Source: Ostreococcus lucimarinus
Lineage: Eukaryota
Assembly: GCA_000092065.1 (NCBI GenBank)
Contig: CP000594.1
DNA length: 64,000 bases
Reading direction: 5' to 3' (one strand)
Part shown: positions 32,027 to 51,753 of the stretch, one piece after another
Numbering within the stretch: position 1 is the stretch's first letter
How the letters are laid out: each line of letters opens with the position of its first letter
The notes under the pieces: generated by a model
The model's input: the letters and a program-made list of their open reading frames with translations, nothing else
What the model was told of the DNA's origin: nothing
Database searches by the model: none
Made by a program: the position numbers and the translations under genes

Positions 32027-33499
32027 ATGGTAGCCGACGATCGACAGCGAAATCGCGCGCTCGGACGGCGTCGTGCGACGGCAATACGCTTAGCCTTTAG
32101 TGCGCTCATGTTCACGTGCGCGGCGAACTCGCTGGTGTGGCTTCAGGGATTGACGTCGAGCGCGGGTGCTACCGAACGCGAAGTGTCATCACGCGCGCGA
32201 CGTCGAGATGCGGAGACGTGTAAAGTCGATGCGCCGACGAGGCTGGCTGAACGTACGGCGCGTGATAGACTTTTCGGGTACAGACGACGAGACGTAGGCG
32301 CGCTCGCGGCGTTGCGAGGCGATGGTGTGACGCTCTCAACGTCGACGACGCGCTGGCGCGATCTCCAATATGGAGACGCACTGGATCGGTACGGGTTCTT
32401 TGTTACGTCTGAACCGGTTTTAAGCGAGAAAGAGGCGGACAAGACGCGGGCGCACCTGCTCAGTCTGTTGCGAAGTACGGATGTGTACGAGCAAAACGAT
32501 GGGTGTCTCGGCGAACTTGCGGACTGTCAGGAGAGATTTGATTTGTCTCTTCGACTCACAACGACTGTGACACGCGCGGTGAATAAGATTGTGTCCACAC
32601 TTAAGCCCGCACTGGTGGATATATTCGGCGATGAAGACTGTGAACTCGTAGAACTGAGTGCGTTGATCACATGTAAAGGCTCACCCACGCAAGGCATCCA
32701 CAGTGATGCGGAAGGGGTGAAAGGAGACGATCGACTTGTCAGCGTGTTCGTATCATTACAAGACACCCCCACGAATCTTGGTCCAACGCACGTTTTCTTT
32801 AACTCACCGAATGCTGTAACAGAGTTTGACTACTATTCCGCACTCATGCTGATGAGGATTGTGGCGGCCGAGCTCAAGAACTCGACGGTTGCGTTAAGAG
32901 ATCATGGTCTTGGTGATATTTATATCAAGCAAGGCGTCGCAGCCATCCCAGAAAACGAGGTTGCGACAGAAGAAGAACTAAAATTCTTCAATGCGCACTG
33001 TAGAGTCGATGAGAGGGATAATACACTGGCATTCTATCCCCCTTGGGAGTCCTCCCCAAACGCCCGTCTCGTGTTTGGCGTCGTCGCTGCTACGCGACAG
33101 GGAGCCGCTCTCGTGTATGACTCGCGGACTCAACACAGAGGTGGAGCTAACACAGTAGGAGCGCGAGTACAACTTATGTTTAGTTTTCAGACGAAGCGTG
33201 CTTTTGTGGCTGGGTCGACATTCACAATGCGACGTAGGTATCATCGCATTGAACGCATGCCACTGACCCTCATGGAGAGAGCGACTCTGACATCATTTGG
33301 GCATGAATACGAGAAAAGCAAGTCGAACCTTGCGTGGTACCTGCGAGTATTCGGAAAGATACGCCTTCGAGACTTCCCATTACGAGCTGACACCACTGAT
33401 CAGGAACGTGAATGGGTGAATGCTGACTTAGTGCAAAACTCTGAAAACAAGTCGGACTTTGATGTCGATAGGATGGGGTTACAAGGTGGAGTGTTGTGA
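32027..33499 (+). CDS. Membrane-anchored phytanoyl-CoA-dioxygenase (PhyH)-like 2OG-Fe(II) oxygenase
   Basis: ATG confirmed. TM AIRLAFSALMFTCAANSLVWL. HxD: GIHSDAEG. Distal H/R: LVYDSRTQHRGGANTVGARVQLMFSF. Confidence 0.45.
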   Translation: MVADDRQRNRALGRRRATAIRLAFSALMFTCAANSLVWLQGLTSSAGATEREVSSRARRRDAETCKVDAPTRLAERTARDRLFGYRRRDVGALAALRGDGVTLSTSTTRWRDLQYGDALDRYGFFVTSEPVLSEKEADKTRAHLLSLLRSTDVYEQNDGCLGELADCQERFDLSLRLTTTVTRAVNKIVSTLKPALVDIFGDEDCELVELSALITCKGSPTQGIHSDAEGVKGDDRLVSVFVSLQDTPTNLGPTHVFFNSPNAVTEFDYYSALMLMRIVAAELKNSTVALRDHGLGDIYIKQGVAAIPENEVATEEELKFFNAHCRVDERDNTLAFYPPWESSPNARLVFGVVAATRQGAALVYDSRTQHRGGANTVGARVQLMFSFQTKRAFVAGSTFTMRRRYHRIERMPLTLMERATLTSFGHEYEKSKSNLAWYLRVFGKIRLRDFPLRADTTDQEREWVNADLVQNSENKSDFDVDRMGLQGGVL

Positions 33500-34073
33500 T
33501 GTAGATGTTGGTATAATTGCAGTTACCTCGACTACCGCTACATCATGCTCATGTTTGTTTTAAGTTCCTCTTCGAATCGAACGGTGCTCGGGTAATGCTC
33601 GGCGACCGGCGGCTCCTCAGAAATTTCTCCAGGTTCGTCAGAAGGCTCTTCAGATTGAACTGGATTCTTAACTATGATATTGTATGGTGTACCATCGGAC
33701 ATCGCGCGCAATATATTGGACATAACTTTTCATACTTAAAGGGGAGCCGCGTGATACACGAGGGACCATCTCACCACGAAGAAATGGGCACCTCTGGTAC
33801 CGAAAAACGTGGCACCCTCGTTCACGCGCGACCACTCTTGAGCCATGAACGGGAGCGACCCATCAAAGGAGACACGCGCACACCGATTCTCGACCACCCG
33901 TCTTCGCCGTGTGCTTTGCAGTACCCCGATCTCGTCGAAAAAGTAGCAAAATGTTGACCAGTGGGGCGTGCTGGCGTGCTTTTCCAGGCTGTTGAAAAAC
34001 TTGAAAATCAGTCATCGCGCCGATGTGACCAGGAAAAACACGGCTTAAAGAATTCTTTTCTTATGTGATATAT

Positions 34074-35345
34074 ATGGACGCCAGAGAATTTACGAACGGC
34101 ATGCATCTGATCCCACTCGACCAGGACAAGGAACCAACATGCGGCAGGGGGTTCCTCGATGAAGCAAACTATGAACAGAACACGCAGAAAGTCATCCCAG
34201 GAGAAATGTACGGCGTGCTGACAGGGCGACCGAACCGTGTCCTCGTCGTCGACTGGGATTGTTACGGTGGCAAGTGCGAGTTTGAACTCACGGAAGAAAT
34301 GTTGACGCGCAAGGTTGGCGGGGAAGGCGCGTACATCGTCAAAACGCGATCAGGCGGGTACCACACGTACTTCGCATGGGACGAAGAACGAGTCGGCGAT
34401 TGGAAAGGCACAGTAGGCATCGAAGGGTTCGTCGATATCCGTACGACGGGTAACTACGTGGTCGGTGCCCATGCCCCGGGCTACGAGCTACTCCGAGGAG
34501 ACATCAACAATTTACCACCAATGCCCAACGATTTGTACAGTTTCTTTGATGGCAAAGTCGGTCACAAGGTCGAACGCGCCGACACGGAGTGCAGCTTTAC
34601 GCAAGCATCTGTGACACCTTTGCTCGAGGACATGGGGTTCACCGGCATACATTGGCTCAGTGGAGCGACATCGTATGATTTTGAATGCGACCAATGTCGC
34701 CCACAGCGAGGCACCTCTGTGGGCCAATGTCCTTGCTGTGGGGGCTTCCACGAAGGCAATGGAAAGGGCGGCGGGAACCACTTTTACGTCGCCGAGGTCG
34801 GCCTCGGCGTGCTCACCGTGAAAAACCATGGCAACTGCAAGCCCAGGCAGTTTCGCTTTGAGGTTGGGTGTCTGGTGACCGGTATCACCGAAAAGGAGCA
34901 GAACGAAATCAAAGAGGGCACGTCTGCGGGCTACATCGAGGTCCGCCGTGAGTTCGAGAAGCACGTCGCAAAGATCTTGACCAAGGACCTCTTCTGCGAC
35001 GATAGCTGTTATGGAACCACCGGGGAGATCGCCAAATTCAGCGAGGCCGCTTTGGTGAGGCGCTATCGAGAACTCTCCTTTGTCGATGAGAACGGCGCGT
35101 CCGATGAGCGTCTTGCTCACGGTGCAACCGTCCTGTTGGACCTTGAACTGAATTTTGGCGAAAGAGAGAAAGTCCTCGGGATCATTTGTCTTTTCAAAGA
35201 GCGCATTCAGACGGTCGCAGAGGTCGTCGTTCTCCGCCCATTCGGCGATGCTCTTCCTCACTGCATCGGGCGCGACGGGCTTCGTCGCCTCGTACGCCTT
35301 GAGGAGCAGCGAACGCGAAACGAACCGGTGATATATATATATTAA
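34074..35345 (+). pseudogene. Truncated primase-helicase. The Prim-Pol domain is intact for ~330 aa, then it diverges into unrelated sequence and terminates, with no helicase domain.
   Basis: The first ~330 aa are ~98% identical to the 48183..50384 protein (DWD, SGGYH, VDIRTTG motifs). The track start 34065 is a GTG and the ATG is at 34074. The divergence point at ~35105 coincides with a 36-nt segment also found at 47118-47153. Confidence 0.6.
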
Positions 35346-35415
35346 GTAAAATTTGGCTATTGAGTCTTCATATGGGAAGCGTACCGATTACAAATTTCTA
35401 CTTCTGGCCCATCAC

Positions 35416-36132
35416 TTACTCAGCTGACTGGCACGAGGTGTACAGGTTCGCTGGGTCGTCCACCTTGACGAACTCGTACTTCGCGTGAGGGCTTATGGTA
35501 CCGGGGAAAGAGCACTCTTGCTTGCCACCCTTATCTTGACAGTACTTGTTCCGCTGCTGACTATAGATGGAGGTCTTGCCGTCTGCCAGCGTGGCGAGAG
35601 TAAACTTGGCGCCGACGAAAATTTCTTCGCCCTCAGCCTCCTTCGGCACGTCACACATAATTAGAGTCTTCCTCCATCCCGGGGGACCACGACTGAGGGT
35701 GTCATCAGCGTCCGTCGCGCAACGGAACTCGGCACCCGTCTCGTCCAAGCGAGTGAGGGTGTAAAAATTGCCCTCGTTCTTCAGGTACACGAGCTTTGGA
35801 GCGTTGTTCGCCGCCGAGGGATCCTCAGACGCAACGCATCGCTGCGAACAGGCGAAGCCCCACTGTCCATTTCCAGCGGTTCCGATGTTATAGTTGCAGA
35901 AGTTTTGATTCATCATGTTAGTCCCATACTTCGATGGGACCCAACCCCCTCGCATCAAGTACGCTCCGTCCTCGAGCGTCGCGCCTTGGCCGAGCGTCGG
36001 AAAGTGTGTTGAACCGACTCCCACGAGCGCGACGACACCGAGACAAGCGATCACGAGCGTTTTACCTCGGCGCACGTCGCTCGCCGCCTTGGCCGCGCGC
36101 ACTTCATCGCGCAGAGGCGTCGATTCGTCCAT
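35416..36132 (-). CDS. Hypothetical type-II membrane protein (cytoplasmic N-terminus, TM LVIACLGVVALVGV, Cys-containing lumenal domain)
   Basis: The track ORF starts at TTG 36270 and the first ATG is at 36132 (MDESTPLRDEVRAAKAASDVRRGKTLVIACLGVV…). It sits inside the rearranged element copy A. Confidence 0.35.
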   Translation of the reverse strand: MDESTPLRDEVRAAKAASDVRRGKTLVIACLGVVALVGVGSTHFPTLGQGATLEDGAYLMRGGWVPSKYGTNMMNQNFCNYNIGTAGNGQWGFACSQRCVASEDPSAANNAPKLVYLKNEGNFYTLTRLDETGAEFRCATDADDTLSRGPPGWRKTLIMCDVPKEAEGEEIFVGAKFTLATLADGKTSIYSQQRNKYCQDKGGKQECSFPGTISPHAKYEFVKVDDPANLYTSCQSAE

Positions 36133-36583
36133 CGAATTAGTGTTGAGCGAACCCCTTCCGGCTGCTGTTTCGATCCCGTCGACCACGATTAACGACGCGC
36201 GTGTTTCACTCGTGCGTCCGACGCGCTTTTTCCCGACGCGGTTCCCGACTGCACTGACGTGCGTCGTCAAGTGCCTCGTCGTCGAGGGTGCTCGAGTTTT
36301 ACTTTTACTGTTGACGCGCCACGTCGGATTCCGACAGGCCCAGGCGCGGCCGCAATGCTACTTTAAACTTAGTATATTTTTTTTGAAAAAAGAGTAGTAA
36401 GAGTAATAAAAACAAACTTTTTGCTACTTTAAACTTAGTATATTTTTTTTGAAAAAAGAGTAGTAAGAGTAATAAAAACAAACTTTTTTTTGAGTTGCGG
36501 CACCCCAACATGATAAAACCGCACATCGACGTCGATGTACCACATGTAAGATTTCTCCAGAACCAATCGTGTGAGTGAAGTGG

Positions 36584-37081
36584 TCAAACCAAGCCACGCA
36601 ACTCGTCTACCGTAAATTGATACTTGTCGAGACTGCGCTTCGAAGGCAGCGTGCCGCGCGCTCGAGCATTCTTGAGGCACGTCTTACGCAGTATTCTTTT
36701 CGCGTGCTGCTTGTAATAATTGAGTTGTCTGTAGTTACCATCGCCGCCGTCCCGCTTCGGCGTATATTTAGCTCTGCCAAGGGTTCGACTCTCGTCCACG
36801 TTCTCGTGGCACGTGTGTTTCTGGCTGAGTCCAGCAGCTCGGGAGTTGAATAAGCCGTCACGCTTCTCTCTCATGTAGGCACTTTTACGTTGATGGAGCT
36901 CTCCAGCTGGAATGTCCTTTTCGAGAACTCTCACGTTCGCGTCGCCAAACTTGAAGATTGGATGCCGTGCGTATTTATGCGAGGCAAGGCGCGCTCTGAG
37001 CGAACCTGTCGTCGATCCGATGTACGTTTTGTTACATTTTGCATTATCGCTAAACATTTCGTACACGCATCCCGACGGCAT
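36584..37081 (-). CDS. GIY-YIG nuclease (165 aa), element copy A
   Basis: ATG confirmed. CVYEMFSDNAKCNKTYIGSTTGSLRARLASHKY is a GIY-(10)-YIG-type motif with a downstream R…H…E. It is 95% identical to 47262..47759. Confidence 0.55.
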   Translation of the reverse strand: MPSGCVYEMFSDNAKCNKTYIGSTTGSLRARLASHKYARHPIFKFGDANVRVLEKDIPAGELHQRKSAYMREKRDGLFNSRAAGLSQKHTCHENVDESRTLGRAKYTPKRDGGDGNYRQLNYYKQHAKRILRKTCLKNARARGTLPSKRSLDKYQFTVDELRGLV

Positions 37082-37689
37082 TTGTCCTGGTCACCTATCT
37101 ATCCCTAAGAAAATATAGTTGCCAAAAGTGCTCCTCTTGCGGTTTGCAGTCACATTCGAGAGATCATAGGTGCTCGTGTTGCTGCGTGGGGTGCAAGGTC
37201 TGGGATGTAGATATCGAACCGCCTGATTTCACACCTGGACGTTCGTGATCCGACGAGACCTGACGAAATGACGAACTTGTTTTGTCGTCCCCAAATTCGT
37301 CAGCCCGTCGTTCGGTCACACTTTGTGTGTACCAATGATGAAAATGACGAAATGTTAAAATATTTCAATGTTTATTTTTATTTTAGATCTATGAAAAGCA
37401 ACAGTGTAGACCTTTATGAAAACAGTTCGTCATTCGTCATTTCGTCAGGATCCAAACCATGGTCTTTTTGGTGTCTTGTTGAGTCTTCATATTGCAAATG
37501 TACGAATCACAAAATTAGTATGAACACCAGACGACCGCCGGCGCGAGCTCCGTCTCCCCCGTTTACCCATTGTCCTTCAGCCACTCGAAGCACCCGTCGC
37601 GGTCAATTTCCCAATAGACGCCATTCTCGTCCCTAGCTTGCCTCAGGTGGTCCTCTTAATACACCAAAAAGTAAATGCAATTATGGTGT

Positions 37690-37870
37690 TTCATTATTCC
37701 ATACGAGTACCCCAGAACGACGAGTCGTGACCCATACGGTAAAAATATCACGTCCCGCCGGTCCGGTCCCCATAGTATATAGAATTTATACAATTCAGCC
37801 CGCGTCATTACGGGGGTACAGTAATCTATGTGTCCGACATTAAACTCGATTTTTGCTAGGGTTTAGCGTC
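37690..37870. repeat. Repeat upstream of DUF285 gene 1, partner at 51885-52000. Sequence: cgagtaccccagaacgacgagtcgtgacccatacggtaaaaatatcacgtcccgccggtccggtccccata…attcagcccgcg … gtacagtaatct … ctagggtttag.
   Basis: Direct comparison. It contains the interstitial plant-type telomere motif TTTAGGG. Confidence 0.7.
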
Positions 37871-38366
37871 CCCGGTGTCCCGCGCGCGCATGCGTTGGCG
37901 CCGTCGACACTCGTCGACGCCCCGGCCCGCGGTCGTTCGCGTCCACACGGTTCAAGTAGTGCCCTTGGACGACGAACGTGCGCTTGTGCACCCTTGCGCG
38001 GATGAAGTGCGTTTCCATCGTGCGTCGCCGCCGTTCGGTCCTTTAAGGGCGACCGTAGCGCAACCGGGCGATCTCCGTGCGGACGGCGCGATGCCGGCGT
38101 ACGCATCGCAAGGAGTGCACACCGGGGGCACTGCGCCATTCGCGACGTACCGTGCAGCACAACACGCGTTTGCAACGCCAGACGGCATGCATTGGCGCGG
38201 TGGACGCAGCGTTTCATTGAAAATTGCGCGCAGCACTAGTGGGCAAAGCGGCTCGTTGGCACCCCAACGGGTCTTAAACACAATACTTGTTTTGTTCGGA
38301 TACTCGCCCAGGGATCTAGACACACGTGAGGGTAGTCGAAGGGCTAGCGTCCGGTGCCAAAAGAAC

Positions 38367-41300
38367 ATGCTCTTTGCTACGGCCACGTGGATGCTGCTAT
38401 TGCTCACGTCGTTTGTCGATGGGGCAATAGTAGACCGCGACGCTTTGAAAGTTGCAGTGGACAACTGTTTGGCGGCAAATGCCACTGGTAACTGCGATTG
38501 TAGCAGTGACTCTGTGGACTGCGGTACCGCTGGAAGTCTTCCCATCTCGCAGTGGGATACGAGCCGCGTGAACGATATGAATAGACTATTCAGCAACCAG
38601 GGTTCATTTAACGCGAATATCTCCGCGTGGGACGTGAGCGGCGTGACGGACATGACTCGAATGTTCGAGGGCGCTAATAGTTTCGCTCAGGACATCAGCT
38701 CGTGGAACGTGGTGAACGTCACGAGCATGGACACTATGTTCTATCGCGCGGATGCGTTCAACGCGCCCATCGGCAGTTGGAACACAGACGGCGTGACAAA
38801 CATGTTTCAGATGTTCCACTCAGCACATTTGTTCGATCAACCGATCGGAAGCTGGAACACGGAACGGGTGACGACCATGCAGTGTATGTTCATGTATGCG
38901 CGTGAATTCAATCAGGATATCAGCTCCTGGAACACGGCCAACGTGGTAAATATGTGGGATATGTTTTATAGTGCGGATGCGTTCAACCAGAACATTGGGT
39001 CATGGAACACAGAGGAGGTGACGGATATGAGGTACATGTTTTATAGTGCGGATGCGTTCAACCAGAACATTGGGTCATGGAACACAGAGAAGGTGACGGA
39101 TCTGAGCGGAATGTTTCAGGGCGCAGCGGCGTTCAACCAGGACATTGGCTCATGGAACACAGAGGAGGTGACAGACATGAGCGGAATGTTTCAGGGCGCA
39201 GCGGCGTTCAACCAGGACATTGGTTCATGGACGACGACGTCGGTGAAGAACATGGAGAGCATGTTCGAGGATGCGACGGCGTTCAACCAGAACATTAGCT
39301 CCTGGAACGTCAGTGCCGTCACAGACTTCGATCGGATGTTCTACACAGCGACCGCCTTCAACAAAGGCATAATCACCACGAAAACGACATGGACTGGCGC
39401 CACCGGCGCGTCCGCGACAGACATGTTCTCCGCCGCCACGGCGTGGCTGCAGAGGTATGAGTACACGACGAATCCCAGCGGAAGCGTCGTGAATGGTCCC
39501 GCGTCGGCTTGGAGTGTGAAGAAGTGTTCGTCCAATCAGTACGTTTTGAGCAACACATGCAAGGCGTGTGCCTCTGGCAAATTTCGCAGTGCTGGTGACG
39601 ACCCTGATGGCTCCAATACGGCGTGTACGTACGCGTCGCCGTTTGCTTCAAATACCCAGCTGAAAGACACGATCGAGTCTTCGTACTGCTTGGGAGGCAG
39701 CGACGCCACGGGCGCGAATTGCACGGACGGCAAGGGTATGTATATAGCGCAGTGGGATACGAGCTTGATCACGGATATGAATCACTTGTTCTACAACAAA
39801 ATTTCATTCGACGCCAATATCAGCACGTGGAACACGGCGAAAGTGACAAAAATGGATAGCATGTTTTCTCAAGCACGTGCATTTAACCAGAGGATTAATG
39901 AATGGAATACATCGAGCGTGGTGACAATGGAAGCTATGTTCCGCTACGCCGAGTCCTTTGACCAGCCCATTGGTGAGTGGAATACCGGAAGAGTCACCAA
40001 TATGAAAGACATGTTTTCGCAGGCGTCTGAATTCAATCAGAATATCGGTAATTGGGATACATCGAGTGTGACGACGATGGATACTATGTTTCGCTACACC
40101 GAGTCCTTTAACCAGCCCATTAGTGAGTGGAATACCGGAAGAGTCACCAATATGAAAGACATGTTTTCGCATGCGTACGCATTCAATCATTCAATCGGTG
40201 ACTGGAACACGGGTGCCGTGGAGAATATGGAGCTTATGTTCCAAAATACCGGCGTTTTCAACCAGGACATCAGCAGTTGGAACACGGCGGCGGTGACTCA
40301 GATGGACTCAATGTTTTACGGTGCTTCAGCCTTCAATTATGACATCACTGGTTGGAGTTCAGCAAGCCTTACGTCGTCGACGGACATGTTTCTCTCCGCG
40401 ACGGCTTGGCTGGCGAGGTACAAGAACACCGCCTCCCCAGGTAGCAAAAATGGGCCATCGTCGAACTGGCTCGGTCCCGGTCCGTTCACGACCAAGTCGG
40501 CGTTGGAGACCGCTACATGGAACTGCTTGGCGGGGAGCGCCGATGCCGATGGCAACTGCGACTGTACGACCGTCGATTGTGGCGCGGCGGTGTATGAATC
40601 GATTTCGAACTGGAACACGAGTTTGATCACGGACATGACCGGTTTGTTTGAAGGTAAGTCTTCATTCAACGCGAATATCGGCGGATGGAACACGGGGAGC
40701 GTCACAAACATGCACCAGATGTTTAACGGCGCGACTGCTTTCAACCAAGACATCGGTTCTTGGGATGTCTCGGATGTAGCGGACATGTATCAAATGTTCG
40801 GTAGCGCGTCCTCGTTCAATCAAAACATTGGGTCGTGGAACACAGGCAGTGTGACGGATATGAGCGGTATGTTCATGAATGCATCTGCGTTTAACCAGCC
40901 CGTTGGTGACTGGAACACAGGCAGCGTCGTGGATATGAGCGGCATGTTTGAGAGCGTGTCTGCGTTTAACCAGCCCATTGGTGAGTGGAATACCGGAAGA
41001 GTCACCAATATGAAAGAAATGTTTTCGCAGGCGTCTGAATTCAATCAGAATATCGGTAATTGGGATACATCGAGTGTGACGACGATGGATACTATGTTTC
41101 GCTACACCGAGTCCTTTAACCAGCCCATTAGTGAGTGGAATACCGGAAGAGTCACCAATATGAAAGACATGTTTTCGCATGCGTACGCATTCAATCATTC
41201 AATCGGTGACTGGAACACGGGTGCCGTGGAGAATATGGAGCTTATGTTCCAAAATACCGGCGTTTTCAACCAGGACATCAGCAGTTGGAACACGGCGGCG

Positions 41301-44300
41301 GTGACTCAGATGGACTCAATGTTTTACGGTGCTTCAGCCTTCAATTATGACATCACTGGTTGGAGTTCAGCAAGCCTTACGTCGTCGGCGAGCATGTTTC
41401 TCGACGCGCCGGCTTGGCTGGCGAGGTACAAGAACACCGTCGCCTCTGGTAGCAAAAATGGGCCATCGTCGAACTGGCTCGGTCCCGGTCCGTTCACGAC
41501 CAAGTCGGCGTTGGAGACCGCTACATGGAACTGCTTGGCGGGGAGCGCCGATGCCGATGGCAACTGCGACTGTACGACCGTCGATTGTGGCGCGGCGGTG
41601 TATGAATCGATTTCGAACTGGAACACGAGTTTGATCACGGACATGACCGGTTTGTTTGAAGGTAAGTCTTCATTCAACGCGAATATCGGCGGATGGAACA
41701 CGGGGAGCGTCACAAACATGCACCAGATGTTTAACGGCGCGACTGCTTTCAACCAAGACATCGGTTCTTGGGATGTCTCGGATGTAGCGGACATGTATCA
41801 AATGTTCGGTAGCGCGTCGTCGTTCAATCAAAACATTGGGTCGTGGAACACAGGCAGTGTGACGGATATGAGCGGTATGTTCATGAATGCATCTGCGTTT
41901 AACCAGCCCGTTGGTGACTGGAACACAGGCAGCGTCGTGGATATGAGCGGCATGTTTGAGAGCGTGTCTGCGTTTAACCAGCCCATTGGTGAGTGGAACA
42001 CAGGTAGCGTGGCGGATATGAACGGTATGTTCAGGAGCGCATCCGCGTTTAACGAGCCCGTTGGTGCATGGAACACAGGCAGCGTGACGGATATGAGCGG
42101 CATGTTTGAGAGCGTGTCTGCGTTTAACCAGCCCATTGGTGAGTGGAACACAGGTAGCGTGGCGGATATGAACGGTATGTTCAGGAGCGCATCCGCGTTT
42201 AACCAGCCGATTGGTGAGTGGGCCACAGGAAGCGTGGCGGATATGAGCGGCATGTTTGAGAGTGCATCCGCGTTTAACCAGCCGATTGGTGAGTGGGACA
42301 CAGACAGCGTGACGGATATGAGCAGCATGTTTGAGAGCGCGTCTGAATTCAATTATAACATCACTGATTGGAGTTCAGCTAGTCTCACGACGGACATGTT
42401 TCTCGATGCGACAGCTTGGCTGGGAAGATTTGCACGCAAAGATGGCGAAGACACCACTGATGGCCCACCATCCAAGTGGGGCGAACCGTGTGGCAATGAG
42501 TGGTACGATGCGACCTTTGAGGAGAAGTGTGAGCCAAGAGTGAACGGGATTGAAGTGAAAGGATGCAATTCTACGTGCGGGATAAAAGACAACTGGCGGT
42601 GCGACAATTTCGACTTGCTACGCCCCCCCGGTGATGACTTAGATAGCTACAATTGTACGTGCGACAACCCGGCGGGCACGTACGCATCGCCTGATCTTGA
42701 TTGTGCTCGCACAGATTGCATTTACGGCGAGCGGTGTCTCGCTAACGGCCTAGGCTGTGCGCCCGGTGCCGGTGGAAACGCATGCGACCGGTGTTTGACG
42801 GCCGCTGATATTGCCGAGCTTCCACTCAACGAACGAAGTCTCAGCAAGAATGGCTATTACAAGACTGGGCAGATGTGCACGGCTTGTCCAGAGACATCGG
42901 CTGGTCAACTTTTCGCTGCGGCTGCGGTTGTCGTCGTCCTCGCTTTTTGTGGTTTCAAAGCCTCTCAATTGATGGGCGCTCAAGCGACGAACAATTTGAA
43001 GAAAATTGTCGAGTCGCTGCAGTTCTTCTCTCTTTCGCTCAGTATGAGTATCAAGTGGCCTGGACCCGTACTCAATCTCGGTAAATATTTGGAAGCTTTC
43101 ACGTTCAGTATTGAGTTTCTACGACCCGAATGCGTCGCTACGGGGCTGAATTGGCTCAATATATTTTTGTCCTCAGTGTTTTTCGTTCCCGCTCTCATCT
43201 TCATAATCATCGTCGTGAACAATAGACGGGCGAAGCACCGTTACAAAACAACGGTGCGCGCGATCGACAGTGAACGACACGAGGATGGCGAAACAGTCTA
43301 CTGGATCAAGAAACCAGGTTTCTTGTGGGGTACGCGGAGAGCTTACGAGTCCAAGGGTGGAGATAAGATTGTTCGCGAGTTGCAGCGCCAGTATCGGTTT
43401 CGAGCCGCGCTTCGATCTTTCGGCGTACTGTCGCTGACCGTCCTATACCTTCCCATCGTGCGTATGTGCCTTCAGTCATACGATTGCATAAAGATAGACG
43501 GCGTGGATGGGCTTCGATTGGAGCATGACATAGATATCCTCTGTGAAAGCGAAGGGCACGTGATCATCCAGGCCGCCGCCGCGGTGATGTTGGCCATTGT
43601 CGGTATCGGCATGCCAATTTACGTCATAATGCAAGTTCGTAAGATCCGTTTGAGCGGTAAACTGGATGATCCACAGACTATCGACTCGTATGGTCCGTTC
43701 TACGACGTCTACCGGCGCGAGGAGCTCACACACGATCACAAATTGGAGATTGCGAGCATTCGACAAACCGCGGTCGAGTCGTCCTCATTTCGACGAGGCG
43801 AAGGCACGAGCGACGAACGTCCTTTCGATGCAGCAACTGATGATATTGCAGAAGAAATCGCAAATGAAGCCAGGGTCGATACGGAAGAAGATTCAAGCGA
43901 CGTTGATCGTGTTGACGTCGAGGACGATAGTGATACTCCACCACCTCAGAAAGTTGCATCCGGTCTCGGTAAGCTCGCTCGGGCGTTAACGATGACGAAG
44001 TCTGCTTTAGGCCGGACGACGTCAGCGAAAGCGCGCGAACGGGCACATCGAATGCACTGGAAGGACAGGTTCGCGCTTCACTACCTGGCCGTTGAACTAG
44101 TGCAGAAGAGTTGCGTCATTTTGACGACGTCTCCGCTAGTGGCCGAAACCGCGGTGAGCGGTTGGGCTCTGGTTGTCGTACACTGGTTTACCGGCGCCTT
44201 CGTCTACGTGTGTCAGCCTTGGCGCATCATGACGCTCGGCTTCGGCAAATACAAGGTGCGAAATTGCTTAAACAAAGTCGAGTCCTTGGCTGGATTTTTG

Positions 44301-44597
44301 CAGGGCGTGGGACCGTTCTTGGCGATGATCTTCCCTGTTCAGAGAAACGAGTTGGGCGAGGTGAAGCAAACTGTGACACTCTCAGCCATAACTGTCCTGC
44401 TGACCATCATAATCACCGGGCTGCTTTCTATTCGTATCATTGTTTTCGTCGGCGAACGCGTCGCCGTCAAACGAAAGAAGATGGACATTGACAAGGATCC
44501 CGAGAAATGCATGCAAAATGTTCACAAACAACTGGTCAAGCTCGCAACCAACAGAGCGATTGTGAGCATGTTGCTTTCAAGGCAGATTTCGACATAA
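38367..44597 (+). CDS. Giant (~2,076 aa) membrane protein. It has a signal peptide, >30 DUF285-type repeats (F-x-x-A-x-x-FNQ-x-I-x-x-W-N/D-T-x-x-V-T-x-M-x-x-MF), Cys-rich EGF-like modules, a multi-TM C-terminal region and an acidic tail.
   Basis: The track ORF starts at GTG 37875. The signal peptide [19 protein letters not shown] begins at ATG 38367. Example repeats: [33 protein letters not shown]…, [20 protein letters not shown]…. TMs [68 protein letters not shown]. Confidence 0.65.
   Translation: [2076 protein letters not shown]
39961..41976 (+). repeat. 1008-bp x2 near-identical (>99%) in-frame tandem duplication (336 aa = 13 DUF285 units) inside DUF285 gene 1
   Basis: ORF pairs are offset by exactly 1008 nt (40321..40626/41329..41634; 40337..40786/41345..41794). 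A direct read of 39961-40180 versus 40969-41188 shows 1-2 differences. Confidence 0.85.
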
Positions 44598-46399
44598 AGC
44601 GCCGTAAAGCACGCGCGAGGCTGGAAGATACCCGCCAAGCGATGTTATCGCGCATCGATATCTTGAAGTCACAACAGACCGACGAGGACCATTCCGATAA
44701 AATTACCGCGTTGTACGAAGTGGCGAATGAAATGGCACACATCGTGAATACGATCGTACCCCAAGCACCCCCAACCGGTCCCAACGCAGAAGGGTCTATC
44801 GAATTGCTGGATGAACAACTGGCATCAATTCTCAAGGACGTCGACGTCCGAGCGCGGGCGAACGCGTTAGATGCCCCAAATTCTGCGGCAGTACATATCG
44901 TGATGAAAGTCCACGCGTTCGATACAATCATATGTCGACTTGACGAACATTTGCTCGAATTCGCGGCGGCAGAACTTGTGAGTGAGCTTGCCGAGCTGGG
45001 TCGAAGACACGCTGAATTACGACATACGCGAAGTTGTGTCGCGATAGGTTTCGGTGACGCAGAGCTTCGAGCTACTTTCGATGCGCTACGATCGTCTATC
45101 GAGACACTTCGCCATGCCGTTGAGAACGACGACTTCGAAGCTGTATTCACCACTTTGAATGGTGGGAAGGAGATCATTGATTCTCACTTACGATGGTGTC
45201 GGGATCAATGTGAATTGTTCAAGAGCGCCGAGGACGAGCACCCCGATTTCCTCGAGGACGAGCCTCCACTGACGACCAAGTTTTTCAAGGCGACAGTCAA
45301 GGTGATACAATCCCATGAAAAGCAACTGTCTAAATTCAAATCGGAGTGTATTCGTAACTGGCCCCCGCTTTTCAAGAACTTTGGCCGCGTCAAGTACATA
45401 CAAGGCTTTGCTGAGCAACTTCAGAATCAACTCCATCTCGATCTCAATGAAAGCACGCCGGAGGAGGCCAAGGCTGTTTTCGATCAGGTGTTGGCCTTCA
45501 CAGATGGCTTCGCGGTTTGGTGCGGCGATTTAGTGGCACAGGTCGAAGGCTCAGATGTCTTCATCTTGTTTGAGCCAATCGCCCGCGCGATGATGGAAAG
45601 CTTGAAAGCCATCAGAACAGACGCTGAGTCGCAAAGTGCACTCGCGAGGCAAGCATTGAGTATGATAGATTATGCGGTGACGCAACGGGCGTTGGCCGCA
45701 ACGACGCGATCGGGCTTGCAGACAGCACTCGCAGATGGTACGTCTGCGCTTGAAGACCAGCTCGCCGCAGAAATTGCACACATGGACGCTGCGAAGATTT
45801 CTCGAGAGACTACTTTCGAGACCGACAAGATGCGCATCGAGGAAGCTTTGACTACATCAGAGCAAGAGTCGGACGGTAGGCGAGCGGTTTTAGAGGATGA
45901 CATTCGATCGCAACAGGACACTATCGCGCGGCTACAAAACTTGAAACGGGAAGAGGCCGCGGCATCGAGCTCTATAAACCCGTTGAAATGGGAGCGTTTC
46001 AGTCGAAGCACTGAGCTCGCCGAAGCTGTAAGTGCACTCCGTATGAGCAAACAAAACTTGAAGAATGAAGAGCTTGCAAATGAGAAGGCCCGCGGGGATG
46101 CCCGTAAGGCTGTTCATTCGTTGGAACGGGGCCTGAAAAAGGACCTGGTCGAATGTGACGTCCGAGCAAAAAAAATCCGAGACGATGTGGCAAAGGAGCT
46201 GAAGAAACAAACTCTGGATGCTCAGAGGAAGACACCCGAAGACGCTAAAGCCCATAAGGCTAGTCTGGCTTCCAGGCGCGCGGTGTTCCAGCAACAACGC
46301 GCCGCCGCCAAACTCATCGCGAGCGAAAGTAGAGAAGCTACGCGAATCCAAGCACAGCTTGCATACTACATGCGAAATTTAAAGGCGCGCGAATCGTGA
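44507..46399 (+). CDS. Hypothetical coiled-coil protein (~590-630 aa), Gln/Glu/Ala/Lys-rich C-terminal half
   Basis: ATG confirmed at 44507, but it overlaps the previous gene's last 91 nt in another frame. The next in-frame ATG is ~44642 (MLSRIDILKSQQTDEDH…), just after that gene's stop. Either may be the real start. Confidence 0.4.
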   Translation: MHAKCSQTTGQARNQQSDCEHVAFKADFDIKRRKARARLEDTRQAMLSRIDILKSQQTDEDHSDKITALYEVANEMAHIVNTIVPQAPPTGPNAEGSIELLDEQLASILKDVDVRARANALDAPNSAAVHIVMKVHAFDTIICRLDEHLLEFAAAELVSELAELGRRHAELRHTRSCVAIGFGDAELRATFDALRSSIETLRHAVENDDFEAVFTTLNGGKEIIDSHLRWCRDQCELFKSAEDEHPDFLEDEPPLTTKFFKATVKVIQSHEKQLSKFKSECIRNWPPLFKNFGRVKYIQGFAEQLQNQLHLDLNESTPEEAKAVFDQVLAFTDGFAVWCGDLVAQVEGSDVFILFEPIARAMMESLKAIRTDAESQSALARQALSMIDYAVTQRALAATTRSGLQTALADGTSALEDQLAAEIAHMDAAKISRETTFETDKMRIEEALTTSEQESDGRRAVLEDDIRSQQDTIARLQNLKREEAAASSSINPLKWERFSRSTELAEAVSALRMSKQNLKNEELANEKARGDARKAVHSLERGLKKDLVECDVRAKKIRDDVAKELKKQTLDAQRKTPEDAKAHKASLASRRAVFQQQRAAAKLIASESREATRIQAQLAYYMRNLKARES

Positions 46400-46499
46400 T
46401 ATAGCGGTCGTCTACGAGGAATACACGCATAGTCTAAACATGACCATCCTGTTGGAGAAGGAGCTGAGTTTCCGCTTCGTTACGGATGAGATTGTCGCG

Positions 46500-47045
46500 A
46501 GGAGATGAGCCTTCAAATTCGGGGCGATGGCTCACAAATCAGGCAAGGGAAGACAGGTGCACGTGCAAACTCTCAGCGGAAAGAGTTCATCGTCTCGAAG
46601 ATCTCGGTGTTTGGTGAGACAAACTCGACACACAGCAGGAGCACTTCACTGCCTGAGTGTACAGAAGATGTAACTAGCCTGAAGCGTTCGACCGTTGAGA
46701 CCTCAAGTTTTGGTGCCCTCGCTTAAGATTTCTTCAGAATAGAATCTCTGAAAGCAAGGGATGCTCAAAGCAGCAAAAATGACTTCCTACTACGGGCCAC
46801 ACAGGACGCCGAGCCCGATTTCTCTGTGCGTTCCGACCCCCCTTAACAGCGGACCCTTGGGTCTTAAGAAATTTCAACCTTTAAGGTTATAGGTTATATA
46901 GGTTATAGGTTTATTTATAAAGTTTACATGTGACGTTTTTTTTCAAAAATGGAAAAAAAAGTGACGGAGAGAAAGTTCCTCACAGGACCTCCAACCACTA
47001 AACCCATAACCGGTCACTCTTCCTCGCCCCGTTCTTTGATACACG
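46500..47045. repeat. Dispersed repeat R, copy 2, inverted relative to 12440-12955
   Basis: See 12440-12955. Confidence 0.75.
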
Positions 47046-47261
47046 TTCGCCCCACGACGGTTCGACCTGAAATTTTTTTCGGTTTGGCTTCGAACCCGAG
47101 CTTGGTCAGCGCGCGTCCGATGAGCATCTTGCTCACGGTGCAGCCGTTAAAAATATCAACTTTTTTGTTTCAGTTGGGGCACCCCAACATGATAAAACGC
47201 TCATCGACGTTGATGTACCGCATGTACGATTTCTTCAGAACCAATCGTTCGAGTGAAGTGG

Positions 47262-47759
47262 TCAAACCAAGCCACGCAACTCATCTACCGTAAATTGATA
47301 CTTGTCGAGACTGCGCTTCGAAGGCAGCGTGCCGCGCGCTCGAGCATTCTTGAGACACGTCTTACGCAGTATTCTTTTCGCGTGCTGCTTGTAATAATTG
47401 AGTTGTCTGTAGTTACCATCGCCGCCGTCCCGCTTCGGCGTATATTGAGCTCTGCTGTAGGCCAGACTCTCGTCCACGTTCTCGTGGCACGCGTGTTTCC
47501 GACTGCGTCCAGGAACTCGGGAGTTGAATACGCCGTCGCGCTTCTCTCTCATGTATGCACTTTTACGTTGACGGAGCTCTCCAGCTGGAATGTCCTTTTC
47601 GAGAACTCTCACGTCCGCGTCGCCAAACGTGAAGATTGGATGCCGTGCGTATTTATGCGAGGCAAGGCGCGCTCTGAGCGAACCTGTCGTCGATCCGATG
47701 TACGTTTTGTCACATTTCGCATTATCGCTAAACATTTCGTACACGCATCCCGACGGCAT
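47262..47759 (-). CDS. GIY-YIG nuclease (165 aa), element copy B
   Basis: ATG confirmed. CVYEMFSDNAKCDKTYIGSTTGSLRARLASHKY…. Confidence 0.6.
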   Translation of the reverse strand: MPSGCVYEMFSDNAKCDKTYIGSTTGSLRARLASHKYARHPIFTFGDADVRVLEKDIPAGELRQRKSAYMREKRDGVFNSRVPGRSRKHACHENVDESLAYSRAQYTPKRDGGDGNYRQLNYYKQHAKRILRKTCLKNARARGTLPSKRSLDKYQFTVDELRGLV

Positions 47760-48182
47760 TTGTCCTGGTTACCTGTCTATCCCTAAGAAAATATTGTTGT
47801 CAAAAGTCCTCCTGCTGCGGTTTGCAGTCGCATTCGAGAGACCGTATCGCTGCGTGGGCTGCAAGGTCTGGGATGTAGATATCGAACCGCCCGATTTCAC
47901 ACCTGGACGTTCGTGATCCGTCGAGACCTGACGAAATGACGAACTTGTTTTGTCGTCCCGAAATTCGTCAGCCCGTCGTTCGGTCACACTTTGTGTGTAC
48001 CAATGATGAAAATGACGAAATGTTAAAATATTTTAATGTTTATTTTTATTTTAGATCTACGACAAGCAACAGTGTAGACCTTTATGAAAACAGTTCGTCA
48101 TTCGTCATTTCGTCAGGATCCAAACCATGGTCTTTTCGGTGTCTTGTTGAGTCTTCATATTGCAAATGTACGAATCACAAAA

Positions 48183-50384
48183 TTAGTATGAACACCAGAC
48201 GACCGCCGGCGCGAGCTCCGTCTCCCCCGTGTACCCATTGTTCTTCAGCCACTCGAAGCACCCGTCGCGGTCAATTTCCCAATAGACGCCATTCTCGTCC
48301 CTACCTTGCCTCAGGTGGTCCTCGCGCATTGGGATCCTGTGGCCCTTTTCCTTCTTGAAGAAGTCCTTGAGCTTATTGCCGACCCTGGTCGCGCTATCTT
48401 GACCGCGCGTAGCCGCTGGCAACCACGTCTGGTATTCGATGAAGATGTCACTGTTGCGGATTTTATTTCCAACCCACTTCTCAGGGAATTCAACAGTGAC
48501 GCAATGCTCAAACCATCGAGTGAACTTGGGCATGCAGCCACGCTTCATTTCCGAATACGCGTCGGTCGTAGGTCTGTCTTTCACGTAGTCAAAAGTCGAT
48601 AGGTCGAGCCCCATGAGGTGGTCGTAGATCGCCCTCAAGTTCCTCAGATCCTTGATGTACACGTCGCGGAATTCCTTCAAGAATCCAGTCTGGTCGTTCA
48701 AGTGCGTGAGCAGTGGCTCCATAACGACGAACCGACGATCACTCATTTCCAGAAAAACGGGGTAGTCGTCGTTCGAGAAAAATAGGAACCCAACCAGATT
48801 CATGATGACGTACAGCTGCACGTGCTTCGGGTTGATTGTGAAACTCGTGTCCGTGAGCATCGATTTCAGCAACTTTCTATACATTTTCATGATGCACTCA
48901 TCTGCTTCGTTCAACGCGAGACACTTTTTGCCTTCAATCATGTTCGCATGCGTCCCAAATATGTCCTTTTTCGGATCAGCCGTCTCATGAAACGTCTTGC
49001 CCATGAGCGCATGAAGCAGGTGCAGGAAAGTGCCCTTGCCGGTACCTTGGACTCCTCGAAACACGAGCGACGTGATCGGCTTCTCTTCGGGTCTCTGGAA
49101 GAGACACGCGAACCAATTCAAAGCGTACTCGAGCGCATTTTCTGAACCGCCACATAGCACCAGGAGGAGCTCGAGGAAAGGCTTTACGTCGCCCTCTTTG
49201 CCCAGTTCACTGGGGATGCCTTCGACCGGATAGCCTCGCCACAGATTGTACGTCTTGTTGCTGCAGTTTTTCGGGACGACATCGAGGGTATCGTACACCC
49301 GTTTATTGTCGTCGTCGAGCCACTTTTCGATGAACCCGTTCTTCTTGCCTTTCCTCAAGACACCGTTCTCATCGACAAAGGAGAGTTCTCGATAGCGCCT
49401 CACCAAAGCGGCCTCGCTGAACTTGGTAATGTCCCCGGTGGTTCCATAACAGCTATCGTCGCAGAAGAGGTCCTTGGTTAAGATCTTTGCGACGTGCTTC
49501 TCGAACTCACGGCGGACCTCGATGTAGCCCGCAGACGTGCCCTCTTTGATTTCGTTCTGCTCCTTTTCGGTGATACCGGTCACCAAACACCCAACCTCAA
49601 AGCGAAACTGTCTGGGCTTGCAGTTGCCATGGTTTTTCACGGTGAGCACGCCGAGACCGACCTCGGCGACGTAAAAGTGATTCCCACCGCCCCTTCCATT
49701 GCCTTCGTGGAAGCCCCCACAGCAAGGACATTGGCCCACAGTGGTGCCTCGCTGTGGGCGACATTGGTCGCATTCAAAATCATACGATGTCGCTCCACTG
49801 AGCCAATGTATGCCCGTGAACCCCATTTCCTCGAGCAAAGGTGTCACAGATGCTTGCGTAAAGCTGCACTCCGTGTCCGCGCGTTCGACCTTGTGACCGA
49901 CTTTGCCATCAAGGAAACTGTACAAATCGTTGGGCATCGGTGGTAAATTGTTGATGTCGCCTCGGAGTAGCTCGTAGCCCGGGGCATCGGCACCGACCAC
50001 GTAGTTACCCGTCGTACGGATATCGACGAACCCTTCGATGCCCACCGTGCCTTTCCAATCGCCGAATCGTTCTTCGTCCCATGCGAAGTACGTGTGGTAC
50101 CCGCCTGATCGCGTTTTGACGATGTACGCGCCTTCCCCGCCAACCTTGCGCGTCAACATTTCTTCCGTCAGTTCAAACTCGCACTTGCCACCGTAACAAT
50201 CCCAGTCGATGACGAGGACACGGTTCGGTCGCCCTGTCAGCACGCCGTACATTTCTCCTGGGATGACTTTCTGCGTATTCTGTTCATAGTTTGCTTCATC
50301 GAGGAACCCTCTGCCGCATGTTGGCTCCTTGTTCTGGTCGAGTGGGATCAGATGCATGCCGTTCGTAAATTCTCTGGCGTCCAT
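48183..50384 (-). CDS. Primase-helicase. N-terminal bifunctional Prim-Pol domain plus Cys-rich Zn-binding segment, central/C-terminal D5-like SF3 helicase (Walker A GVQGTGKGT, Walker B LALNEADE, motif C FFSND), ~733 aa.
   Basis: The track start 50393 is a GTG. The ATG is at 50384 (MDAREFTNG…). Prim-Pol motifs VLVIDWDCYGG (DxD), RSGGYHTYF (sGGxH), VDIRTTGNYVVG. Zn segment CDQCRPQRGTTVGQCPCCGGFHEGNG. Confidence 0.75.
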   Translation of the reverse strand: MDAREFTNGMHLIPLDQNKEPTCGRGFLDEANYEQNTQKVIPGEMYGVLTGRPNRVLVIDWDCYGGKCEFELTEEMLTRKVGGEGAYIVKTRSGGYHTYFAWDEERFGDWKGTVGIEGFVDIRTTGNYVVGADAPGYELLRGDINNLPPMPNDLYSFLDGKVGHKVERADTECSFTQASVTPLLEEMGFTGIHWLSGATSYDFECDQCRPQRGTTVGQCPCCGGFHEGNGRGGGNHFYVAEVGLGVLTVKNHGNCKPRQFRFEVGCLVTGITEKEQNEIKEGTSAGYIEVRREFEKHVAKILTKDLFCDDSCYGTTGDITKFSEAALVRRYRELSFVDENGVLRKGKKNGFIEKWLDDDNKRVYDTLDVVPKNCSNKTYNLWRGYPVEGIPSELGKEGDVKPFLELLLVLCGGSENALEYALNWFACLFQRPEEKPITSLVFRGVQGTGKGTFLHLLHALMGKTFHETADPKKDIFGTHANMIEGKKCLALNEADECIMKMYRKLLKSMLTDTSFTINPKHVQLYVIMNLVGFLFFSNDDYPVFLEMSDRRFVVMEPLLTHLNDQTGFLKEFRDVYIKDLRNLRAIYDHLMGLDLSTFDYVKDRPTTDAYSEMKRGCMPKFTRWFEHCVTVEFPEKWVGNKIRNSDIFIEYQTWLPAATRGQDSATRVGNKLKDFFKKEKGHRIPMREDHLRQGRDENGVYWEIDRDGCFEWLKNNGYTGETELAPAVVWCSY

Positions 50385-50695
50385 ATATATCACATAAGAA
50401 AAGAATTCTTTAAGCCGTGTTTTTCCTGGTCACATCGGCGCGATGACTGATTTTCAAGTTTTTCAACAGCCTGGAAAAGCACGCCAGCGCGCCCCACTGG
50501 TCAACGTTTTGCCACTTTTTCGACGAGATCGGGGTACTGCAAAGCACACGGCGAAGACCCGAGAGATCAGCAGATCGACGAACTCCGCAGTGAGCTCAGT
50601 GACATCGTGTCAAGACTGGAGGCGGTGGAGAGCGCCTAATCATCGTTTTTCTATATCGCGCCATTCGTGGACAACAAAATATACGTCCACATATA

Positions 50696-51691: not shown

Positions 51692-51719
51692 CGCGTGCGT
51701 CGATGAGTGGCGCCGACAC

Positions 51720-51751
<32 letters not shown>

Positions 51752-51753
51752 GC

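Follow-up and report, generated by a model that had tools for sequence, protein, structure and literature searches.

A stretch of 64,000 nucleotides from Ostreococcus lucimarinus (contig CP000594.1 of assembly GCA_000092065.1), hereafter referred to as the window, contains several copies of a unit composed of (i) a gene for a primase-helicase (PH), in which a Prim-Pol domain is joined to a superfamily 3 (SF3) helicase as in replication initiators, (ii) an iteron-bearing inverted repeat with an AT-rich centre, which follows the PH gene, and (iii) a GIY-YIG nuclease gene. With a probability that we place at roughly 0.7, these copies constitute the replication module of an integrating polinton-like virus (PLV), one that inserts itself into the chromosomes of Ostreococcus. 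The module persists without capsid or integrase genes, as rearranged copies located in a hypervariable, possibly subtelomeric island. The iteron-rich inverted repeat, the mobility of the GIY-YIG cassette and the presence of PH genes near true telomere arrays are new, and no description of this Ostreococcus element was found in the literature. One or two PLV-type capsid genes have been reported in Ostreococcus genomes (Bellas et al. 2023), and the accessible part of the supplement of that study does not name O. lucimarinus.

Ostreococcus, which is the smallest free-living eukaryote, serves as a model of virus-host coexistence, and its strain-variable low-GC regions are tied to virus resistance. 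If the above interpretation is correct, the locus shows that PLVs feed DNA into such regions, where a self-contained replication module (initiator, probable origin and mobile nuclease) survives in many copies that are subject to selection. In other protists, integrated PLVs and virophages are emerging as antiviral defences, and the locus offers parts with which this idea could be tested in an ecologically dominant alga, namely iterons of defined sequence, a nuclease whose target is predicted and, as possible helpers, full-length PLV relatives.

The primase-helicase and its relatives in polinton-like virus contigs

The only intact PH gene of the window (copy A, 48183–50384, minus strand) encodes a protein of 733 aa comprising a Prim-Pol domain, a Cys/His zinc motif, a D5_N-like region and an SF3 helicase. 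Both this ORF and the accompanying 165-aa GIY-YIG ORF (47262–47759, minus strand; ABO99766) were present as described in the original prediction, made from the sequence alone, and its assignment of the larger protein to the Prim-Pol/SF3 type was borne out by profile searches. A Pfam scan of the whole 733-aa protein did not detect Prim-Pol (PF09250), which scored 40.1 bits (cutoff 22.8; E 6.7e-10) when the N-terminal 161 residues were scanned alone. DUF5906, the D5-type P-loop domain, reached 54.6 bits against a cutoff of 27.6 (E 2e-14). Invariant in the 19 full-length sequences compared were (i) the DxD, sGGxH and hD..R motifs of archaeo-eukaryotic primases (AEP; D60, D62, G94, G95, H97, D121 and R123), (ii) the Cys/His cluster (C205, C219, C222 and H226) and (iii) the Walker A/B, motif C and Arg finger residues of SF3 helicases (G447, G449, K450, E493, N538, R550 and R551).

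When the PH family profile was compared with known structures, the N-terminus matched pRN1 ORF904 (E 6e-8), and a further match was obtained with the primase-helicase 6k9c (1e-28). The ORF904-type initiators have the same domain order, and an iteron/inverted-repeat region likewise adjoins the gene; they belong, however, to archaeal plasmids and are remotely related in sequence, whereas the gene described here, with its candidate origin, is integrated in a eukaryotic nuclear chromosome. The D5 proteins of nucleocytoplasmic large DNA viruses (NCLDV) and the S3H replicases of virophages and PLVs likewise have a D5-type SF3 helicase joined to an AEP or polymerase domain. Relatives of the helicase half number in the thousands (43,390 at E <1e-3 in a set of 1.84 billion representatives), whereas the full-length architecture was found in only about 15 clusters at 50% identity, and the close matches of PH include no named NCLDV or virophage protein.

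The protein search yielded a 601-member cluster 98% identical to PH, further relatives whose identity is 84, 81 and 57%, and about 15 full-length proteins with 30–36% identity, all of them from marine metagenomes. A metagenome scan gave 80 loci, and neighbouring genes were counted over 85 loci by clustering all ORFs. This analysis revealed that the GIY-YIG family of the window adjoins PH in 29 of the 85 loci. A family of approximately 300 aa, present in 20 loci, has conserved R, K, R, H and Y residues and a weak XerC-like structure match (E 0.011), by which it is identified as a tyrosine recombinase. In 14 loci on unrelated contigs, PH is directly preceded by a same-strand gene with DUF285 repeats, and such a gene also adjoins copy A. 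A common order of genes in the relatives is recombinase, GIY-YIG, PH; the relatives linked to the GIY-YIG family and to a tyrosine recombinase include those at 30–37% identity.

The closest full-length relatives of PH are encoded on contigs of 3–19 kb with PLV-type gene sets. In one clade (loci L004, L115, L117, L122 and L129), the recombinase/GIY-YIG/PH block is followed by a gene for a 449-aa protein. Searches of the L004 and L002 neighbours against PHROGs and Pfam gave nothing useful beyond a weak lipase match, and structure prediction was therefore required to identify the capsid protein. The AlphaFold model of the 449-aa protein (pLDDT 72, pTM 0.76) was matched by Foldseek to PBCV-1 Vp54 and the major capsid protein (MCP) of SGIV (both about 1e-15), to the capsid proteins of Sputnik (8e-12) and mavirus (1e-10) and to a BFVD entry (3e-32), so that its predicted fold confirmed it as a double-jelly-roll capsid protein. 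The genes nearby include a penton-like ORF and one whose product has a GHSLGG lipase motif.

A closer relative, L002, forms the end of a 112-kb contig and encodes a PH 81% identical to that of the window; at a distance of 9 kb it carries, in inverted orientation, a PH fragment 97.6% identical in DNA sequence to the window type. The gene order of L002 begins with an X repeat module (described below) and a 522-aa ORF. L002 and the independent Tara contig L090, which also encodes a PH of 81% identity, contain two recombinase genes, PH, the intergenic inverted repeat of the window unit (described below) and genes for a Walker A/B ATPase, a 141–143-aa protein and a 374–381-aa penton-like protein, followed by a capsid ORF, frameshifted in L002 and intact in L090. 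The intact L090 capsid ORF matched the profile of the verified capsid protein (hhalign probability 89.7%, E 1.8e-6, 234 colinear columns); it was the only one to do so, and neither single L002 ORFs nor the L090 penton-like ORF gave significant hhalign matches to the L004-type profiles. The penton-like assignment in L090 and L002 is based only on position and sequence pattern. The PLV affinity that had been proposed for the unit is upheld by this linkage to a tyrosine recombinase, to the same GIY-YIG family and to a double-jelly-roll capsid protein; of the two origins originally considered, a new type of element or a decayed PLV-like provirus, the evidence favours the latter.

The PgVV gene list comprises Seg1 GIY-YIG, an OLV11-like tyrosine recombinase, a replicase-S3H, a lipase, an A32 ATPase, a minor capsid protein (mCP) and an MCP (10.1101/2022.07.28.501842); other PLV features used for comparison were those given in PMC4642659. 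The layout of the PH relatives (recombinase, GIY-YIG and replicase-helicase, followed by lipase-like, ATPase, penton-like and double-jelly-roll capsid genes) matches that of PgVV/Gezel-type PLVs. Unlike the replicase of those viruses, which begins with TVpol, the present one has an N-terminal Prim-Pol (AEP) domain with a zinc motif. The window copies also differ in lacking the recombinase and the whole morphogenetic module, and no terminal inverted repeats (TIRs) were seen.

NCLDV D5 proteins have an AEP, D5_N and SF3 layout, prasinoviruses infect Ostreococcus, and giant viruses commonly carry GIY-YIG genes. The unit could on these grounds be a fragment of a prasinovirus or other NCLDV inserted in the chromosome, with a D5-like PH and a GIY-YIG gene captured from an Ostreococcus virus. 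We regard this as very improbable: no named prasinovirus or NCLDV protein was found among the PH homologues, the nearest named match being bacterial (26% identity), the matches in IMG/VR cover the helicase part alone at ≤30% identity, and the closest full-length relatives are those found on the short PLV-type contigs.

Small circular plasmids were considered as a source of the metagenomic PH genes and rejected. None of about 85 contigs had direct or inverted terminal repeats, and the many contigs of 3–5 kb are therefore assembly breaks. Two tandem PH paralogues occur among loci L005, L131, L142, L144, L145 and L151; in L005, the upstream paralogue is fused to an N6/N4 DNA methyltransferase domain, and a phage-tail-like gene is also present. 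The L005-type clade may be a different kind of virus.

The candidate replication origin and selection on the unit

An inverted repeat is located directly after the PH stop codon, at 47927–48117 in copy A and at 37259–37449 in a truncated copy, B2. In copy A, it consists of 17-nt perfect inverted arms (CCTGACGAAATGACGAA / TTCGTCATTTCGTCAGG) placed 157 nt apart, with an AT-rich palindromic centre at 48018–48041. This region of 190 bp contains seven exact TGACGAA heptamers in each of the two copies (43 in the whole window, compared to 15.9 expected), and folding as single-stranded DNA gave z = -3.8. The 17-nt arms are identical in A, B2, L087 and L166, although the surrounding DNA differs by 3–6%. 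The two arms have co-varied in L002 and L003, where they are GTGATGAA-type repeats at an unchanged spacing. Directly after the PH gene of L099, whose product is 34% identical to PH, lies an inverted array of GGAGGAT (5662–5909) with 17-nt perfect arms 214 nt apart and a TATATA centre, i.e. a window-like architecture of unrelated sequence.

Judged by these sequence features, the TGACGAA inverted repeat is probably an iteron origin served by the adjacent PH initiator. By analogy with the pRN1 ORF904-type initiators, PH would bind the TGACGAA iterons, melt the AT-rich centre and prime synthesis. The unit would thus stay a potential mini-replicon, which might be amplified alone or with the help of a full-length PLV or a prasinovirus.

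PH is under purifying selection, with dN/dS values of 0.1–0.2: 0.08–0.20 among window-type copies, 0.15 between copy A and the truncated copy B1, and 0.17–0.20 in comparisons with the clades of 81–84% identity. Low values of this kind are also compatible with inert fossils, that is, with dead remnants of PLV proviruses that were multiplied only by segmental duplication and recombination in a hypervariable region and whose low dN/dS dates from the era of the infectious virus. The differing boundaries of the copies, the truncation of three of the four PH copies of the window, the junctions common to several strains and the lack of any detected integrase or capsid gene all agree with this explanation, as does the low dN/dS of B1, which is itself truncated. 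On the other hand, stop-free 733-aa ORFs recur in many independent contigs (L001, L086–L088 and most listed members of the 601-member 90% cluster), and the origin arms have been perfectly kept in four copies within diverging DNA. We therefore consider fossils a possible explanation, but a clearly less probable one than the replication module of an integrating PLV, as preferred above.

Several observations weigh against the interpretation of the unit as the replication module of an integrating PLV. Remnants of recombinase, capsid, ATPase and penton genes were undetected in the window and in window-type copies by hidden Markov model (HMM) and tblastn searches, which, for the provirus genes of L002 and L090, covered the window, L087, L088 and L166 and, for the recombinase HMM, the window and L166. 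Provirus descent at the window loci is consequently inferred from the relatives. The original description of the module as capsid-less agrees with this result, since a search of the window for capsid, ATPase and integrase genes found none. Furthermore, the L004-type PLV contigs have no obvious equivalent of the origin repeat, and IMG/VR holds no close relative of PH. L002 is a metagenome long-read contig and is possibly chimeric, although its PH-to-capsid order was independently confirmed by L090. In the GIY-YIG domain, neither the conservation nor the alignment of the catalytic Glu is clear. Finally, the purifying selection on PH could date from a virus phase before integration and not reflect a present function.

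Copy boundaries and mobility of the GIY-YIG gene

Self-comparison of the window confirmed that the unit is present in multiple copies of varied orientation and state of decay, and further copies were found in other contigs. Region 33900–35095 is 97.4% identical to 49363–50558 (inverted), 36473–37655 is 94.0% identical to 47148–48323 (direct) and 27234–27527 is 91.5% identical to 33667–33951 (inverted); the last match corresponds to a previously noted promoter-region fragment, here termed copy C. The PH proteins of the copies are 97% identical (334/345) and the GIY-YIG proteins 91% (150/165). A tblastn search of the window detected exactly three PH pieces, covering residues 1–733, 1–342 and 688–733.

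Copy A (minus strand) is made up of its PH gene, the candidate origin, the GIY-YIG gene and two flanking parts. The upstream region (50385–50558), common to B1 and C, ends early at 50558, while other copies reach about 400 bp farther (L087 1392–1810); the 3′ region (47148–47261) is truncated at 47148, which equals L087 position 5224, and other copies again reach about 400 bp farther downstream. Copy B1 (33667–35095, plus strand) consists of the upstream region (33667–34073) and PH codons 1–342, and its ORF runs past 35095 into unrelated sequence, up to 35345. Copy B2 (36335–37655, minus strand) contains a 3′ region with a 67-bp tandem duplication (36356–36488), a GIY-YIG gene (36584–37081), the origin-like repeat described above and the last 46 PH codons (37518–37655). 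Copy C (27234–27912, minus strand) is an upstream (promoter) region alone, and a solo 3′ fragment (12969–13372, minus strand), 93.7% identical to L087 5164–5565, corresponds to the region that follows the GIY-YIG gene in full-length units.

B1 and B2 had been taken for a second gene pair. Their parts are indeed near-identical to copy A, but they do not form a pair: they are two independent truncated copies in opposite orientation, because L088 contains B2 as a full-length unit with its own PH, adjoining the same B1 junction, and L167, which is 99.1% identical to window 29384–36469, contains B1 without B2. After B1, L167 runs into cobW, GTP cyclohydrolase II and FMN dehydrogenase genes where the window has B2.

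The ends of the copies vary. Relative to L087, homology starts at 1392–1449 in five loci, at 1570–1612 in B1 and L088 and at 1810 in A, and it ends at 5224 in A, at 5273–5295 in B2 and L088 and at ~5565–5628 in L087, L166 and the solo fragment. No TIRs, target site duplications (TSDs) or transposase domain were found for the copies; as to TIRs, none flank any copy, though no complete provirus served for comparison. The unit is thus not a bounded 3.4-kb element, and the suggestion that it is a discrete two-gene transposon of a new class is not supported, given these differing ends and the separate mobility of the GIY-YIG gene.

The identity of this gene stands at the level of its family. The window proteins themselves fall below the Pfam cutoff (17.1 bits, or no match), but 11 of 15 relatives match PF01541 (best E 3e-9), and the family profile matches the catalytic domain of I-TevI (1mk0; E 0.002). 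Conserved residues are Y7, Y20, G22, R31 and N79. The dN/dS values range from 0.25 to 0.6, and the changes are concentrated in the linker. The DNA-binding-like C-terminal domain contains a motif that recurs at the N-terminus of several associated tyrosine recombinases.

The position of the GIY-YIG gene differs between relatives. It lies downstream of PH in the window, upstream of PH in L003, L089, L091 and the PLV contigs, and is absent from L002 and L090. In the latter two loci, a cassette of ~880 bp containing the gene (L087 4440–5312) is missing: the match to L087 extends up to the inner right arm (4439) and resumes at 5321. The cassette is bordered on one side by the inner arm and on the other by an outer inverted repeat (GACCATGGTTTGGATCC / GGTTTCAAACCATGGTC). 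The upstream gene in L003, L089 and L091 encodes a family member of 32% identity and has an HNH ORF adjacent to it. On this comparative sequence evidence, the GIY-YIG gene behaves as a separately mobile cassette inserted in the origin palindrome.

Such behaviour resembles that of GIY-YIG homing endonucleases (I-TevI, T4 Seg and PgVV Seg2), with which the protein shares both the GIY and the YIG motif as well as a conserved Arg and Asn; as in those systems, the gene is present, absent or moved between otherwise colinear relatives, and it sits inside a conserved palindrome. Unlike the Seg proteins of T4 and PgVV, its C-terminal DNA-binding-like domain is common to the N-termini of the associated tyrosine recombinases, which to our knowledge is not a described Seg feature. 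Sporadic, mobile GIY-YIG genes have been described in PLVs (10.1101/2022.07.28.501842; PMC4642659). The protein may act as a free-standing homing-type nuclease, with break repair carrying its gene from one origin copy to another, and it may also promote the rearrangements observed.

A second type of GIY-YIG gene, encoding a protein with a CCHC zinc knuckle (28645–29145, minus strand; 166 aa; ABO99763), sits on a segment of roughly 1.3 kb (27935–29277) that is absent at the same locus in L094, which is otherwise 98–99.8% identical. No TSD was found at this indel, and because the junction shows only CGTG-type microhomology, insertion and deletion are indistinguishable. The CCHC-GIY family adjoins PH in seven loci.

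These data also bear on a new autonomous transposon of two genes, in which the GIY-YIG protein would cut the target and the Prim-Pol/helicase would copy the element into it. In Penelope-like elements, a GIY-YIG nuclease acts in integration, which provides a precedent, and the PH/GIY-YIG pair has been kept over deep divergence (in 29 of 85 loci), with multiple and dispersed copies. Yet TIRs, TSDs and common termini were not found, and the GIY-YIG gene occupies a different place, or is missing, in loci that keep PH and the origin. Moreover, tyrosine recombinase and capsid genes accompany the pair in relatives, and this association speaks for a virus and against a transposon; we hold the latter to be improbable.

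Several smaller features adjoin the ends of the copies. A 540-bp repeat (12437–12975 and 46488–47019; 90% identical, inverted) adjoins the solo fragment and copy A on their 3′ sides, its relative orientation being reversed between the two, and is probably an independent small repeat family. A 611-bp unit that is whole in L166 (16216–16826) is split in the window between the end of B1 (35095–35131 side) and the 3′ end of A (47111–47147 side), the two parts overlapping by a common 37 bp, an arrangement suggestive of an insertion and a subsequent inversion between element copies. The end of copy A (47148) and the start of a fragment in L167 (10441–10488) fall within about 4 bp of each other, in an A/T-rich repeat (CAAAAAAAAAGTTTATTTTTA) downstream of the GIY-YIG gene, a site that may be a recurrent breakpoint. 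A 357-aa ORF upstream of copy A (50696–51769) was examined as a possible member of the unit and placed outside it, because it has no homologue beside any other copy.

Telomere repeats, dispersal and the hypervariable island

Exact (TTTAGGG)n arrays terminate five of the metagenomic contigs (L003, L089, L116, L152 and L134) and lie 0.1–4.9 kb from PH genes that belong to three PH clades (L003/L089, L116/L152 and L134). Both L003 and L089 have GIY-YIG, HNH, PH and the origin repeat, in this order, then codons 1–29 of the provirus ATPase gene (E 1.9e-6) and finally telomere repeats. The chromosome end was formed inside the provirus, and the telomere replaces it from ATPase codon 30. In L116/L152 and L134, the order is telomere, DUF285 gene(s), PH. 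L152 runs on into diphthamide-synthesis, ankyrin, amidohydrolase and RING genes, and is therefore a real eukaryotic chromosome end; its PH gene is broken into ORFs of 206 aa and 379 aa. In L166 and L167, truncated upstream fragments equivalent to copy C are capped by CCCTAAACCCTAA.

The recurrent association with telomeres suggests a route from provirus to capsid-less element, which includes the telomere-capped, cut provirus as one form. PLV proviruses would integrate by means of the tyrosine recombinase into strain-variable, often subtelomeric regions and would then be reduced by breakage, telomere healing and ectopic recombination. The same processes would spread the surviving PH, origin and GIY-YIG pieces among such regions.

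A possible role of PH at chromosome ends is also suggested. Yeast Y′ elements and fungal telomere-linked RecQ-like helicase genes are multi-copy, recombining, helicase-encoding units beside telomere repeats, and the arrays next to PH genes in the three clades recall them, although the helicase here is SF3 and of viral origin, as opposed to the SF2/RecQ type. By this analogy, the host might keep a domesticated PH with its origin for end maintenance or for diversification of DUF285 genes, and the virus-derived pair would now be a resident, selected chromosome-end component in picoplanktonic green algae. Local re-replication or recombination might then maintain the ends and diversify the adjacent giant DUF285 surface-protein genes; alternatively, the unit might serve as an inducible decoy replicon against prasinoviruses. 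The arrays near PH in three clades, one of them at the real end in L152, the DUF285 genes directly upstream of PH in 14 loci and beside copy A, the purifying selection and the telomere-like motifs beside the window copies are all in line with such a role. However, subtelomeres gather mobile DNA anyway, the PH of L152 is broken, and window-type copies also occur away from any visible telomere. We consider domestication unlikely, and prefer the view that the copies are a PLV replication module.

Within the window, five telomere-repeat-like 13-mers were found (0.36 expected), all of them beside X/V modules that flank PH fragments. The motifs, of CCCTAAA type, are located at 51754–51860 (plus strand), 12171–12183 and 37856–37868. 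The V and X repeat modules upstream of copy A (51864–52127) include a 30-bp perfect palindrome (52006–52035) and repeated GTAATCT; related V/X modules are present at 29384–29539, 12135–12297 and 37671–37804, and the PLV-like provirus of L002 likewise has an X module at its left edge (4294–4354). The individual interstitial motifs (window positions 12171, 37856, 51754, 51834 and 51848; L166 7399 and 20373; L167 2171 and 3379) fall at the junctions of repeat modules with truncated element fragments. Those at 37856 and 51754 share a 42-bp stretch just upstream of ORF starts and could instead be telo-box promoter elements. The palindromic X modules (12186–12279, 29418–29539 and 52006–52127), which include a near-perfect hairpin with 43-nt arms and an imperfect palindrome with 61-nt arms, are found again upstream of PH in both L087 and L166; they may serve as sites of recombination or as termini.

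Window-type copies of ≥95% DNA identity were found beside alpha-amylase and inositol-phosphate synthase genes (L092), a ferritin gene (L149), RuBisCO-methyltransferase-like and FAD monooxygenase genes (L166, a 296-kb contig) and cobW (L167). Near-identical copies thus occupy at least four other host contexts, which excludes a purely local duplication. Three pieces within 25 kb of a repeat-rich region might have suggested an ordinary host gene pair duplicated in place and without other genomic copies, the case that the original prediction had named as its refutation. This case is refuted by the dispersal of the copies; 90% clusters of 601 and 898 members and the direct viral linkage also speak against it, and we attach next to no credence to it.

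The PH copies of the window are located in a strain-variable island that adjoins conserved core genes, because metagenomic contigs with the same poly(A) polymerase gene diverge from the window and from one another ~3 kb past that gene. The GC content is 72% and 57–62% in the first 10 kb and about 50–54% across the rest, and this sharp drop (1–12000 compared to 12000–64000) coincides with the point of divergence. Together, the two features mark where core DNA passes into hypervariable DNA. Genes for giant G8/beta-helix and DUF285 repeat proteins are located in the low-GC part. The window contains three giant intron-less ORFs: 15070–26946 (3958 aa, with G8 and a CEMIP beta-helix), 37875–44597 (2240 aa, with 13 DUF285 repeats in periodic arrays of 75/150 nt) and 52438–63930 (3830 aa, with DUF285, TSP1 and PAN). 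In one of the contigs with the poly(A) polymerase gene, a 2615-aa DUF285 gene takes the position of the DOMON gene of the window.

Eight window proteins are identical to proteins of O. lucimarinus CCE9901 encoded on a chromosome of 708,927 bp, namely the poly(A) polymerase, RRS1, the DOMON protein, the GIY-YIG proteins ABO99766 and ABO99767, the CCHC protein ABO99763 and two unnamed proteins. Housekeeping domains and a plant-type snoRNA are consistent with a green-algal nucleus. The latter is a match to the C/D-box snoRNA snoR117 (3860–3939, minus strand; 43.4 bits, gathering score 42); tRNA and Rfam scans of the window gave nothing bearing on the PH element. The genes for RRS1 (4175–5422), poly(A) polymerase (5910–7706) and the DOMON protein (9731–11800) each have two GenBank accessions offset by 34–35 (e.g. 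ABO99545/ABO99580), which suggests that the core segment is present twice in the CCE9901 assembly. A 643-aa ORF (29874–31805) contains an alanine-rich tract built from 12–15-nt periodic repeats (30136–30516), and its length is polymorphic across strains (602, 636 and 643 aa).

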